Made by a program: the position numbers. 30,956 nt of DNA from a virus. Positions 15,001 through 21,000 of the stretch are shown here, piece by piece (positions within the stretch are counted from its first letter, which is position 1; each line of letters begins with the position of its first letter). The stretch lies in the UHGV virus genome UHGV-0133295. The stretch is one strand, 5' to 3'.

Positions 15001-18000
15001 TATGTCGACGTCAGGCGTGAGGACGGTTCCTGTACCCGTTGATTTCACAGATGATGTTGCCGTCCAGTCACTGACTGTCCATGCCGGTACATCAGGACAA
15101 GTTCGCGCGGAAGTCAAACTTGAGGGTAATTACGCCATTATTGCGAAGAAAGTACCGTCTGATGATGTTACCGCTCAGAGATTAATCGTTAGCGGCGGTG
15201 AAACAACGTCTTCAGCAGATGGCGCAATGATAACGTTGCATGGTTCCGGAAGCAGTACTCCACGTCGCGCGGTATATAACGCACTCGAACATCTTTTTGA
15301 GAACGGAGATGTTAAACCTTATCTTGATAATGTAAATGCTCTTGGTGGTCCGGGAAACAGGTTCTCGACAGTTTATCTTGGCTCCAATCCTGTGGTTACC
15401 AGTGACGGAACATTAAAGACAGAGGCGGTCTCTCCTGACGAAGCATTGCTGGATGCCTGGGGTGACGTCAGGTATATCGCTTATAAATGGCTGAACGCTG
15501 TCGCTATAAAGGGGGAAGAAGGGGCGAGGATACATCATGGTGTAATCGCGCAGCAACTTCGTGATGTTCTTATTTCTCACGGACTCATGGAAGAAGAAAG
15601 CACAACATGCCGCTATGCCTTTCTTTGCTATGACGATTATCCCGCAGTATATGATGACGTCATTACTGGCCAAAGGGAAATACCGCTGACTGATAATGAC
15701 GGGAGCATCATTGTTGATGAGGATGATAATCCAGTGATGGTAATGGAAGACATCATTGAGCGAGTTGAAATAACGCCAGCAGGATCTAGATGGGGGGTCA
15801 GACCTGATCTCTTATTCTATATCGAGGCGGCATGGCAGCGCAGAGAAATAGAAAGAATAAAAGCTAGGTTAGACTTAATAGAAGGGAAGCACTAAATGTT
15901 TCGTTGGCGTCAAAAATATGAACTGCTCACATAAAGAAGTAAGTACATTGGCAAAAAACATTGACGTCAACGAAATTAAATATAAAAATTTAAATGCTTT
16001 TTAATGACAAGAAAAGTAACTAGTGGTAAAATAACGTAGGATACTAATATGTCAAGACTCAAGACTCAAGACTCAAGACTCAAGACTCAAGACTCAAGAC
16101 TCAAGACTCGTTTTCCGTTGATGATAATGGGTCAGGTAATATTTTTGTATGTGGAGATCTTGTAAATAGCAAAGAGAATAAAGTTCAGTTCAATGGAAAC
16201 AATAACAAACTTATTATAGAAGATGATGTTGAGTGTCGATGGCTTACCGTAATATTTAGGGGTGATAATAATTACGTAAGAATACATAAAAACAGTAAGA
16301 TTAAAGGTGATATTGTCGCAACAAAAGGTTCAAAAGTTATTATCGGTAGAAGAACGACAATAGGTGCAGGTTTTGAAGTCGTCACTGATAAGTGCAATGT
16401 TACAATTGGCCATGACTGCATGATAGCAAGAGATGTTATTTTGCGTGCATCAGATGGGCATCCTATATTTGATATTCATAGCAAAAAAAGGATTAATTGG
16501 GCAAAAGATATCATTATATCTAGTTACGTATGGGTAGGGAGAAATGTCTCTATAATGAAAGGGGTATCTGTTGGAAGCGGATCTGTCATTGGGTATGGGA
16601 GTATTGTAACTAAAGATGTGCCATCTATGTGTGCAGCAGCCGGTAATCCAGCAAAAATAATAAAAAGAAATATAATATGGGCAAGAACGGATAAAGCGGA
16701 GCTAATTAGTGATGACAAGAGATGCTCCAGCTATCATGCGAAGCTCACGCAATAAATATAAAACATCTTGCAGACATATTACCAATATTAATATAAGGTA
16801 ATAAAAATATAATTTACAAAAAAGCCCGTTGGAAGCGACGGGCATTAACCGCGGTAATGGATAAATTATTAATGTTTTTAGATTGTGAACGATATCATAT
16901 TGTGCGGAAGTAGTGAAGTAACCATGTAAAATGATTGTTTCATAGCCTATGAGACACACAAGGCTTTGTGCTCTTCTGTGGATGTGTGGCTACATGTTTG
17001 AAGATCGTTGTGCCGTATTTGTGACATACACATGGCAACATCATGCCTCAACTTTCTGTTTGTGCCATCAACTATAGATTAGTGAATGCGGTTAATGCTT
17101 GCTAAAACAGATAGTTATGATTGGTGCTACAGATTCGTAATGCGAAGGTCGTAGGTTCGACTCCTATTATCGGCACCATCAAGAAAATCAATAACTTAGC
17201 TTAACTTCTCTAAGAAATTGTATCTTCTGTTATCACTTACAAACGCCTATACGTTGTTATGGGCTTTGGTAGTGTAACACGTATGGGCGAGTAGTTCCCA
17301 GGCTCAACCTCGTAACAAGTTCCTTTGAAGCTGGAAGACGTGCCACCGTCTCTAAACCTTCTACCAAAACTCTTAGCAAGATGTTCCACACCTGGCGCGG
17401 TGTCCAATGATGCTACACGTCGTGAGACGTTGCAGAGGATAAACAGGCTAAATGATGGGAAGAGTTTTAAGTGCAATAGTGGATTAAAGCCCACCTCTTC
17501 AAAACCTAACTTGATCGGGAAAGAATCAAGCTCTAGCACGGTTTCGTCCACCGGAGTACAACGGGTGCCTGATAAGAGAAGAACTGCTAAGACTTCATAG
17601 CTTTTGTGAAAAAGCCCTTTTTAGTGGATACGCCTACGGCGCTTATTTTTTGGTATAACCATCAAAGGCGCTTTATGGCTCCTATTGTCTTGAAAATGTA
17701 TCTTTACTTGTATTGTGTTTTATGCGTAGTCTCCCTGTGTAGTATGTAACTTGTTAATTTTCATATGAATACAGAGGCACACGATGAAAAACATTGCAGC
17801 TATCAAACGGAATAACCGCAAGATTCACGCTCGTAAGTTCCTGTCTACGCCAGAAGGAAAAGCCTGGTTAGAGCGTAAACAGAGAGAGAACGAAGAAAGA
17901 AAACTCCTTAGTGAGTTGAAATGGCTTAGAGAGGATTTCTGAAAATCTCCAGAACGCAACAGGACGCATTCTAACGCTGTTTTCATTACTCGGTATAGGG

Positions 18001-21000
18001 ATGTATAGGTGATGTGTGTTTAATGCGTCTGTGAGCTTGTTTTGTGCCTTATTTTGCATTTTCATAATGCAGGAGAGAACACGGAAAGCCTTAAAATTAA
18101 TTATTGGGGTATTTAAGGCTATTTTTAGTGTATTTAAGGGTATTAAACTTGATTTAATTGATTAAAATATAAACAGATAATTATTTATCTTATTGATTTA
18201 TAAGGTTATTTTTAAATAAAGGTAAATAAAAAATAAATAGCCATAAATAGCTATAAATACATCTAAATACCTATAAATACATCTAAATACCTATATCCCT
18301 TCCCTTATGGCTAGATTGCGAGAGGTGCTTAACGCGATTTTCAGCGCCCCCCGATCTGGAAAATCCAGAATCCCCAAATATCAGCAAGGAATTTTCTTGC
18401 GTAATCAACATCGTTTTTACCTATTAAATCATTACACAGAAAGCCTTTCTGTAATGTCTCTCACTAAACTTTCACTAAACACGAGAATGATCGGTTTTAT
18501 GTCGGATCAGATGCTAGAAACAGCACCACGTCTCACAAGGGCTGTAAGCGATGAAACCAGTTTTTATGCGGGTGCAGGTCAAAATATAGGCCAAAATACA
18601 TTTAACATAATAAACGTAATATGCACTAAGGAACACATAGAACGCCTTGAATTGATGTATCAGGGGAAAAGTGATGGATTTTTTACGTAGGAGCACGAGA
18701 GGGCTTCTGTTGACTTTTGTATGCTATGAAATATAATTAAAGGTTTTTTTGTTTTTATCGTGTGATGTAGTGGATTACACAGGGGAATAGATTAAATGAT
18801 GTTCTGTTTATACAGGTTTATTTGTTAGATCAACAAGTTGGCATTTCTAAACAGATGTTTGAACGTTGCCAAATGTCTTGACAACACAAGAAAAGGGCTT
18901 GCTATGCCACGCATTACACGAAATAAGGCTGTAAAAACAAAATAAATTTTAAAATTTGCACAAACGAGAAAACTCGTTCAGAAACAAGCAGAACAATTTT
19001 TAGCCAACAATTTCTGATAGTGCGCTGTAAGCCGCATTACACAAGGATTTGCGAAAGTGATGTAAAAGTGAAGAAAGTAAGAATTGCTCTTTTAAGCTAC
19101 TTTTTCATTGAATTTTTAGTATGGAATTACACAGGGAATAGAGAGCATTATTCTATGATTTACACAGGGAATATAGGGGGATTATGGCACACACATAGAA
19201 AGGCATTACACAGAGTGAGTGCTATGTGACAAATGGATGTAACGAGAGGTTACATTCAGCTATCTGAAATGCTCTCTGTAAGAAAGTTGGTAGTAACGAT
19301 ATGTTACATCGACAGATGATTGGATGTAACGGTAGCTCACAGTGAACTAGGGGTAGGTCATAGTGAACTACCCCCACAGAATTCTGTTACCCCTATCAAG
19401 TCTGATACCCGATAAGTATAAATAACACCTAGGAAATGATTTCCGATCTATTTAGGAAGTAACCTAGGAAGTGGTTTCCTACCTACCTAGGAAATGAGTT
19501 CCACCAATACTATAATTAAATAATATAAATAATATTCTTTATACTATATAGCTCACTGTGAACTAGGGGGGTAGTTCACTATGAGCTAGGGGGTAGGTCA
19601 TAGTGAGCTAGGGGGTAGGTCACTGTGAACTACAATAAGACTATTAATAAAACTATATTAGATTATTAATTAGATCATAATAATAATATTCTTTATATCT
19701 ATATATATGATCTTTTGCCTTCCGGCGTTAGCTTCACTCTCTGGCAAGCAGCCTTACTCCGCTACCTTTCGGGCTTCGTGGCTGGCCCGTTCCGCTCACA
19801 CCGAAAGCAAAGCGTTACTTTCTTCGTGTAACTATCGTGGCGGTAACGCCCACGAAGAAATACTATTGCGCTGTGCGCAGAAGAGTAATCACCTAACCAA
19901 TCATACTGATTGCTTATGTGTTAACTCTCTCTAACTCTTAATTACCCTCCTACATTTAATAACTCTGTTATTCTCTGTAGTTGTGTAATTACTCGAAGAG
20001 AGAGCGGCTAAAGCTCAATTACACTCTGCTTTCCTCGTGTAATTTCACTAAGCCTCAATACAATTCCACTTCCTTGCATTCTGTAGTCGTGTAATTGTTT
20101 TCGGTGGAAAAGCCAGAGGCGACACCGAAAGAGAATTCTGATCTTATTAATCTTATCTATCTTAGTTATCTTACTTACTTATCTTACTTTATCTACTTTA
20201 TTATTAATAATAGCTTTATAAGCTCTGTGTAGCTCTTTGACGCAAGAAACAGCATTCAGGAAGGGAATCACCTTAGAAAAGTGTTCTTTGCGTCATAATG
20301 TGTTTTATGAAGGATTCAGAGGTGTTTCATAACAGGAGTGTATAGAGGATACTTTAATTAATTAAAAATAAGGGGTCTAAATGCTTCTCTAACAGCATTA
20401 AGCAGGGTAGGGAATGGAAACGCATTGCCTACATATAATAAGCTCACTACAGAGCGTTTTATAAAGTGACTCTCTATCTTATATCTGCCATTACCTTTTC
20501 ATATACCTAACAAATACAAAATAAGCCCCTTAAATAAGCCTCTGACGAGATAAATAGCCTCTACATAAGGGAATGTATTGCTTTTATCAAAACTTCGTTA
20601 GAACGCGTTTTAGAGCGTTTTAGACAATAAGGAGGAATAGCACTACACAGAAGAGCACGAATTGCTAAGAAAAAATGTAAGTGCATGAAAAAGATCAGAT
20701 TTTTTATGAAAAGGTATTGACAAATGTTTCTTTATATGTAATAATAGGTATTAGAGGGACAGAAAAACATTCTTCTCTAAATAATCAAAATCAATGCACT
20801 TTGAAGCCGTCAGGCTTGCAAGGTGTTTTTTCTTTTAACTGAATAAGGAGTTTTTTATGAAATGGTTTACACCGAAACACGTCGTAGAGGCATTTAAAAA
20901 AGGTGAGCTTACACGCCATCAAGTAGTAATGAATCGTAATATGGCAAGGAGTCGAGGTTATCCAGAGCGAGCTGCTTGCTTCAATGAAGCACTCAAGATT

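Follow-up and report, generated by a model that had tools for sequence, protein, structure and literature searches.

The window analysed here is the whole of UHGV virus genome UHGV-0133295 (30,956 nt) and is itself Escherichia coli chromosomal DNA, and the stretch of interest, positions 17179–20856, is a gene-poor 3.7 kb that forms part of a 12.3-kb island found in the Escherichia coli chromosome at the tRNA-Thr gene thrW. The island includes an integrase gene (28046–29380), on the strand opposite to its operon, and the att core is present as a direct repeat (17155–17179 and 29462–29486) in which the last 25 nt of the tRNA part recur, as is the case for an integrated element. The tRNA-Thr piece at the left edge (17133–17178) is the 3′ part only, as the intact tRNA is separated from the island by a P22-like prophage, and ARAGORN detected no complete tRNA. 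In other strains, where thrW is intact, the island follows it in the interval from proA to the pao genes. What this stretch is likely to do for the island is considered here.

An earlier sequence-only reading of the window had described the stretch as a collection of repeats with almost no credible genes, and all six repeat families are present where it placed them. It was also correct about the genes, as a single small open reading frame (ORF) of 52 aa is supported by RefSeq/PGAP annotation and by tblastx. Part of the region was found in 763 of 5426 complete E. coli genomes and it is not dispersed, with a median of one place per carrying genome, which disposes of the concern that the repeats might be a common genome-wide element. 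The first island gene starts at 20857, and the operon beginning there encodes first a 62-aa protein and then a ribbon-helix-helix-like protein, followed by a 230-aa initiator (21289–21981) that matches HTH_36 in Pfam and replication initiator and lambda O-like families in PHROGs. The operon further encodes several proteins without an assigned function, a capsid protein (Phage_cap_E in Pfam), a 611-aa protein and a 227-aa Dit-like protein.

The last three proteins link the island to the virulent myoviruses of the Stephanstirmvirinae and, in particular, to phi92 and its genus Justusliebigvirus, referred to below as the helper in anticipation of the argument. The 227-aa protein shares 55 % identity with gp135 of phi92, which was identified as the tail tube initiator by cryo-EM (PMC13450770), and the 611-aa protein has its homologue in the tape measure (gp134) of Stephanstirmvirinae phages. 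At the DNA level, the first 87 nt of the tape-measure-like gene (25413–25499) are 87 % identical to the helper-type gene and the tube-initiator gene (27326–27756) is 73–79 % identical to the helper type in the aligned stretches, which suggests recent gene exchange with Justusliebigvirus. The capsid protein aligns over its full length with the product of the helper capsid gene, at 22 % identity (E = 7e-7), and its homologues were found only in Enterobacterales. The capsid, tape-measure and tube-initiator homologues are collinear with the phage structural module. These three were the only virion or packaging proteins recognised in family searches, and judging from ORF sizes and the same searches no island protein has the size required of a portal or large terminase, small unassigned proteins being all that is left. 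The features of the stretch are listed in Table 1, where L001 and similar labels are our own numbers for related loci.

Table 1. Features in and at the edge of the stretch, in window coordinates
Feature	Position	Strand	Basis and remarks
attL, 3′ fragment of tRNA-Thr(CGU) thrW	17133..17179	+	att core 17155–17179
att-proximal arm	17180..17780		DNA kept across genera, without a conserved reading frame
52-aa ORF	17784..17942	+	basic; PGAP WP_000788777.1; only gene that RefSeq/PGAP annotates in the stretch (in other E. coli genomes)
Phased TAAATA(C/G) array	18090..18300	+	7 units at exact 10-bp spacing, 18224–18295 (TRF); 2 inverted copies, 18109 and 18130
Helper-phage terminus copy, site A	18307..18385	-	18316–18355 = phi92 318–357
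Predicted 376-bp terminal repeat of packaged satellite DNA	18330..18705	-	motif pair
Seven TTACACR(GG) motifs	18432..19215	+	motif search; copies 18432–19206
Site B, cut-site-like motif AGCCCTCTCG	18694..18705	-	motif search
Promoter-like P1, TTGACT-16-TATAAT (11/12)	18710..18737	+	reads towards origin; conserved in L005; putative function
GATGTAAC palindromes	19236..19330		abut first iteron; ~76–79 % conserved in L015 and L020
Probable replication origin	19333..19715	+	iterons and AT-rich tracts
Non-coding block, ~400 nt	19716..20140	+	richer in G+C, local hairpins; contains four inverted TTACAC copies
TTATCTTA-type tandem repeats	20141..20204	+	TRF
GTTAGAACGC then GCGTTTTAGA x2	20597..20624	+	~95–110 bp upstream of P2; inverted partner 17948–17986; possible operator
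Promoter P2 of island operon, TTGACA-17-AATAAT with upstream TG	20717..20745	+	motif
Leader hairpin (12 bp) and U-run, very probable intrinsic terminator/attenuator	20797..20842	+	between P2 and first gene

When the stretch was compared with 50,697 phage records using blastn, only phi92-like genomes (~145–150 kb) matched and all of the matches fell at 18310–18355 in the window. Within this segment 40 of 40 positions (18316–18355) are identical to phi92 318–357, and the match continues with mismatches through CCCAAATATCA. In phi92 the 40-mer runs across position 343, the inner end of the left direct terminal repeat that is annotated as 343 bp long; carried over to the window, the phage genome end falls between 18329 and 18330. 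The terminus element is kept in the Stephanstirmvirinae phages of Klebsiella and Citrobacter. The phi92 record ends in GAAAATCGCGTTA and an independent Klebsiella phage record ends in GAAAATCGCGTT, one base earlier in the homologous sequence, while AGC(C/A)..CTTTCTTAAA is the opening sequence of every phi92, Klebsiella-phage and phAPEC8-like record that starts at the genome end. As AGCACCTCTCG is found just past the phage repeat boundary, one motif therefore marks both repeat boundaries, in direct orientation.

If the island had copied the complete arrangement, a second cut motif would be predicted approximately 343 bp to the right of the first, and site B was sought and found after this prediction had been made. 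The pattern AGC[AC]?C[CT]TCTCG has only two matches in the 31-kb window (18329 and 18705); these share the minus strand and are separated by 376 bp. This spacing is identical in five loci (the window, L001, L002, L005 and L020), and the repeat it would define compares with phage terminal repeats of 343 bp (annotated in phi92) and about 344 bp (Klebsiella phage). In shuffled sequences, 0.10 matches to the pattern were expected per window, and two or more occurred in 0.45 % of trials. The segment between the motifs coincides with an ORF of 127 aa (18307–18690), but its nine variable sites are spread 2/4/3 over the three codon positions and hence give no sign of selection at the protein level.

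In the E. coli-type loci examined (the window, L001, L005, L006 and the metagenome bin L020), the TAAATA array always lies beside the terminus element, with a varying number of units, and a Serratia relative has a similar GGTATTTA array. The array would be the upstream half of a putative packaging module (18090–18710); the combined array and terminus module is present in 428 of the 5426 complete E. coli genomes. The possibility that the array mimics a T4-type late promoter, TATAAATA, was considered and rejected, as the helper genome has fewer copies of this motif than expected (12 versus ~24) and the related phage rV5 lacks gp55, gp33 and gp45 (PMC3606486). On the available comparisons, the terminus copy is probably a packaging signal. 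The more specific prediction, that packaged satellite DNA ends in a terminal repeat of exactly 376 bp, is tentative and falls a little short of an even call.

A second island provides an independent replicate of terminus copying, with the terminus of another phage genus. L007, from E. coli strain H3 and located at tRNA-Gly, does not contain the phi92-type element. At the equivalent position (8099–8181) it has an 83-bp match to Phapecoctavirus (phAPEC8-like) genomes, corresponding to 273–357 bp from the start of those Phapecoctavirus records that begin at the genome end, and this match holds the genus-specific run TTGTCGCyGCGTGGACCTGACGGC followed by CGTTA|AGC. The best matches of the L007 tape-measure homologue are likewise in Phapecoctavirus and Klebsiella relatives. 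In the Serratia relative, two cut-like motifs judged by eye lie ~385 bp apart.

To the right of the packaging module, 22-bp repeats of the form TAGsTCAynrTGArCTA with GGGG are present as two copies at 19333–19374 and four at 19549–19636, and AT-rich tracts lie at 19503–19548 and 19637–19715, such that each cluster of iterons precedes AT-rich DNA. Iteron arrays adjoin AT-rich DNA throughout the family. When seven islands were compared, their initiators were of two types that share only 27–29 % identity. Type A initiators (the window, L001, L002 and L006) are always accompanied by six 22-bp iterons, whereas islands with a type B initiator (L005, L007 and L008) have none or one and carry GGAAATGAGTTCC-type (CCTAGGAAATGAGTTCC-type) repeats instead; L006, of type A, has no type B repeats. 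Because iterons and initiators switch together, the 22-bp repeats are the cognate iterons, and the region that contains them is very probably the replication origin. The proposal in the sequence-only reading that an origin served by the product of 21289–21981 lies here is thus borne out by the co-variation.

The same origin holds iterons of other kinds, namely one ACCCCTATCAAGTCTGATACCC unit at 19388–19419 and three CCTAGGAAATGAGTTCC units at 19427–19502, the latter seen as a CCTAGGAA(A/G)TG..TTCC repeat present three times. In Citrobacter and Enterobacter islands, four ACCCCTATCAAnnnnGATACCC (ACCCCTATCAA) units form the iteron array, and the window keeps one, that at 19388–19419. From the iteron types of the sister islands it follows that the ACCCCTATCAA unit, like the CCTAGGAA repeats, corresponds to initiators of other specificity and that the origin is a mosaic. 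The initiator variants of these seven islands all end in DFDIPF, DSLPF or DSIPF though the two types are so different. The C-terminal tail of the E. coli single-stranded DNA-binding protein (SSB) is DFDDDIPF and recruits many replication proteins, and the initiator C-terminus may be an SSB-tail mimic that recruits host factors.

The regulatory role that the sequence-only reading gave to this stretch finds support in a conserved strong promoter and a leader terminator ahead of the operon. The −35 box TTGACA of P2 and its spacing are kept in E. coli, Citrobacter, Enterobacter and Klebsiella islands, and a ribosome-binding site at ~20846 and the ATG at 20857 follow the leader hairpin. In an alignment covering four genera (A8), 100 % of the hairpin cells were paired, 5 of the 12 pairs showed compensatory changes, none of 500 shuffles was as good and slid controls collapsed; this hairpin is almost certainly an intrinsic terminator or attenuator. 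Helper infection may relieve it in the manner of an antitermination switch. The GTTAGAACGC/GCGTTTTAGA site upstream of P2 is largely kept in six aligned islands, L006 being without one GCGTTTTAGA unit. The second promoter-like sequence, P1, starts just to the right of site B and has no ORF behind it.

Taken together, we favour the view, with a probability of roughly two in three, that the island is a satellite of virulent Stephanstirmvirinae myoviruses, in this case of the phi92 genus Justusliebigvirus, and that the stretch is where its origin, packaging module and control elements are gathered. At the left end, attL and a putative integrase arm region would be followed by the gene for the 52-aa protein and then by the packaging module, which runs from the TAAATAC array through the exact copy of the helper terminal-repeat boundary to the second cut motif 376 bp on, and the helper terminase would cut satellite concatemers there to unit length with a 376-bp terminal repeat. 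P1 would read towards the origin, at which the lambda-O-like island initiator would act and which also carries the iterons of two other initiator types; the conserved 400-nt block sits between the origin and P2; and P2, with the leader terminator, would gate an operon for regulators, the initiator and the island's own capsid, tape-measure and tube-initiator proteins. The hub envisaged in the sequence-only reading is therefore partly supported, though that reading missed the satellite nature of the island, the association of the TAAATA array with a copy of the helper terminus, and the mosaic origin.

Several observations weigh against this interpretation. The coordinates of the repeat boundary in phi92 rest on the annotation of the record, site B fits the phage motif only in its core (10/13, with one gap), and L006 and L007, which have a resolvase gene after site A, yielded no second site. 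The Citrobacter, Enterobacter, Klebsiella and Serratia relatives had no phage match in the phage collection searched, and scans of viromes and metagenomes, IMG/VR included, for contigs ending at the predicted sites gave integrated copies only. Read by eye, G-rich, extended −10-like repeats lie beside the phage element, which could serve the phage in a different way, for instance as an early promoter. Finally, the TTACAC arrays, the GATGTAAC palindromes, the TTATCTTA repeats and the 400-nt block have no place in the satellite model.

The 400-nt block bears on the question of whether structured non-coding RNAs are functional products of the stretch, in particular of 19716–20140 and of P1. The block was found with nhmmer in Citrobacter, Enterobacter and Klebsiella islands with any iteron type, and is thus kept in four genera, with invariant motifs that look single-stranded between variable hairpins; positions 19734–19797 are 92 % identical to Citrobacter, where the capsid proteins share only 63 %. 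P1 is near consensus though no gene follows it, and the P2 leader of ~90 nt, as estimated from the coordinates, ends at a hairpin. However, RNAalifold gave a weak energy and a positive covariation term on five sequences, Rfam 15 yielded no match at the gathering threshold (the sole sub-threshold match in a permissive scan had E = 2.2), and the same pattern of conservation fits a single-strand DNA initiation site beside the origin. Hence, RNA products as an explanation for the stretch are unlikely, and a structured RNA and a single-strand initiation site are both candidates for the block itself.

Less likely again, and in our view improbable, is that the 40-mer is a helper-responsive regulatory site, for example an early or middle phage promoter or a site bound by a phage protein, with which the island senses infection or titrates a phage factor. 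The phi92 element does sit 340–380 bp upstream of the first early gene and resembles the neighbouring G-rich extended −10-like repeats GGGGGTGTGTTAAAAT and GGGGGGTGTGTCGAAAT, and the helper genome has, behind six strong promoters, a hairpin similar to the satellite repeat GGAAATGAGTTCC. Yet in two phage records of independent origin this element straddles the physical end of the genome, the motif found directly outside the repeat is present again at the left end of the phage, the satellite carries another copy of the motif on the same strand at a phage-like distance, and a promoter in that orientation would read into gene-free satellite DNA.

The original suggestion of an origin, partition and regulatory hub, if taken as that of an ordinary integrative island with no tie to a phage, is improbable as a complete account. 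It would explain the iterons, the AT-rich tracts, the neighbouring initiator and the promoter and terminator, and in the sister islands a small site-specific recombinase lies beside the region, as in plasmid multimer resolution. It does not explain the copied helper terminus or the capsid, tape-measure and tube-initiator homologues in the order found in phi92-like phages, and the partition part fails in that no ParA/ParB-type gene was detected among the island proteins and no repeat family could be tied to one. That the stretch is merely decayed coding sequence of a degraded prophage, with incidental repeats, is very improbable, for although ORFs of 69–127 aa are open, that of 127 aa in four variants, and variants carry cargo genes at the same place, no ORF of the stretch, the 52-aa ORF included, matched a family in Pfam, PHROGs or NCBIfam, the 127-aa ORF has no third-position excess, tblastx matches to other genera shift frame and contain stops except in the 52-aa ORF (78 % amino acid identity over 37 aa in Kluyvera, in a single frame), and a gene-free stretch is found at the same position in seven relatives with non-coding blocks that are more conserved than the proteins. 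The small island proteins also gave nothing useful in the three libraries.

The relatives share a common layout. In the Citrobacter, Enterobacter, Klebsiella, Kluyvera, Buttiauxella and Serratia islands, attL and cargo are followed by a small recombinase gene on the minus strand, then nearly gene-free DNA and then the operon and integrase. The gene-free part spans 1.1–2.4 kb in the seven relatives examined, which range from E. coli to Klebsiella, Enterobacter and Serratia, and the Citrobacter freundii and Klebsiella aerogenes islands each have a called ORF of 74 aa within it. This conserved minimal gene set gives the islands the look of satellites rather than of decaying prophages. Conservation extends to the att-proximal arm, where blastn blocks at 17232–17458, 17410–17447 and 17506–17582 match Buttiauxella, Citrobacter and Kluyvera islands while the tblastx matches contain frame shifts and stops; from its position, the arm may hold putative sites for the integrase and a directionality factor.

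Mimicry of helper packaging signals has been reported for P4, SaPIbov5, EfCIV583 and PLE, and the packaging-site copy in PLE, whose helper ICP1 is treated as pac-type, consists of 14 identical bp within 89 bp, beside the origin (doi 10.1101/2024.04.22.590561). The PLE of Vibrio cholerae, with the virulent myovirus ICP1 as helper, resembles the present island in being integrated and in having an iteron origin for its own initiator with an adjoining copy of the helper packaging site. There is no sequence relation between the two, however, and PLE takes and remodels the helper coat whereas the island encodes its own capsid, tape-measure and tube-initiator homologues; the island also differs in copying a direct-terminal-repeat boundary, with a second cut motif a repeat-length away. 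The PLE origin is located in a large non-coding region. P4, SaPIbov5 and EfCIV583 also carry a helper packaging signal for the helper terminase, but their helpers are temperate cos or pac phages. P4 is characterized by the alpha primase-helicase, ori/crr, sid/psu/delta and a cos site, and in the family searches none of these was detected in the island.

Phage-inducible chromosomal islands (PICIs) of the SaPI-like and EcCI types have an AlpA or Stl-type regulator, a primase-helicase module and TerS or Ppi-type redirection; the island proteins include no AlpA, primase or helicase domain, and the initiator is an O-like protein. Capsid-forming PICIs (cf-PICIs) carry a full set of head and packaging genes (capsid, portal, protease, connectors and small terminase) and take only tails from the helper. 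Like them, the island is an enterobacterial satellite with its own HK97-type capsid protein (Phage_cap_E) but, unlike them, it has no detectable portal, protease or terminase and does have tail genes. In common with lambda ori/O and iteron plasmids, it has repeats of ~20 bp with internal dyad symmetry beside AT-rich DNA and a winged-helix initiator, the differences being an origin 1.6 kb upstream of the initiator gene rather than inside it, three iteron specificities and the SSB-tail-like DFDIPF end. The strong promoter with a terminator an estimated ~90 nt further on, ahead of an operon, recalls lambda PR′-tR′ and Q-type late control, though no antiterminator was identified here and control by read-through would be by analogy.

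The mechanisms proposed would thus have precedents in PLE, P4 and lambda ori. What look new are the mimicry of a direct-terminal-repeat boundary in helper-genus-specific modules, the origin with three specificities and the satellite family itself. No description of satellites of phi92-like phages was found in the literature searched, the coverage of which was incomplete so that novelty is not proven. Opinion is evenly balanced on the broader proposal of an undescribed family of enterobacterial satellites of virulent phi92-like and phAPEC8-like phages that copy both terminal-repeat boundaries in exchangeable, genus-specific modules and form particles with their own capsid, tape-measure and tube-initiator proteins. 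If correct, this would be the first satellite known to mimic terminal-repeat packaging and to re-specify both head and tail. The phi92-like and phAPEC8-like phages are candidates for therapy; should the islands be mobilized by them or interfere with them, they would affect the host range and yield of therapy phages and would be an E. coli counterpart to the Vibrio PLE-ICP1 system. The copied sequence also marks the likely terminase cut sites of a phage subfamily for whose packaging signals no description was found. The mosaic origin records swaps of initiator modules between related elements, and the extra iterons are conceivable both as relics and as a means of cross-replication.

Further copies of the TTACACR(GG) motif lie on the minus strand (four, at 19825–20088) and on the plus strand (one more, at 20019), and 11 of the 15 copies in the window are inside the stretch. 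The arrays, plus to the left and minus to the right of the origin, are limited to islands of the E. coli lineage, where they occur irrespective of initiator or resolvase. A helper motif was rejected as their source, TTACACRRGG being absent from the helper genome, as was a role as target of the first two operon proteins, which are family-wide whereas the arrays are confined to the E. coli lineage. DnaA boxes, Tus Ter sites and LexA boxes were considered for TTACAC and GATGTAAC, and by eye the matches were too poor.

In E. coli islands (L006, 4214–4753; L007, 8185–8736) the recombinase beside the gene-free region is a serine resolvase (PF00239), its place being taken in Citrobacter, Enterobacter, Klebsiella and Serratia islands by a small tyrosine recombinase (PF00589); the positions are drawn from L006, L007, L021 (4204–4668), L022 and L024–L027, and the island variant in the window has neither. 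Such a swap between non-orthologous enzymes suggests that multimers of a replicating form are resolved. In sister islands, variable cargo that includes Dam methylase, HNH proteins and hypothetical proteins occupies the DNA from attL to the gene-free part (L005, 3001–7211; L022, 4394–5083; L024, 2311–3036; L025, 1654–2379), and this segment may be an accessory or defence hotspot.

In the phage Justusliebigvirus alia (L009–L011), six near-identical cassettes, at 81609, 84306, 85186, 87495, 87862 and 89507, each consist of a strong TTGACA/TATAAT-type promoter, the hairpin GGCGGGAAATGGTTTCCCGCC and a ribosome-binding site with ATG; the 13-nt core of the hairpin resembles the satellite CCTAGGAAATGAGTTCC repeats, perhaps by chance. 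Outside the island, positions 1–16900 of the window are the end of the P22-like prophage, in tandem at thrW upstream of the satellite, with genes for portal, head closure and ejection/DNA-transfer proteins and a 981-aa tailspike. A perfect tandem repeat, TCAAGAC x 8.3 (16052–16109), is intergenic, between the tailspike gene and the att site. Just to the right of attR, 29640–29978 encodes a 112-aa integrase fragment (PHROG 1), a remnant of another thrW element. One partial copy of the region was found on a plasmid, at 40171–45053 in the 166-kb E. coli plasmid NZ_CP126938.1, beside an IS3 transposase and a recombinase.

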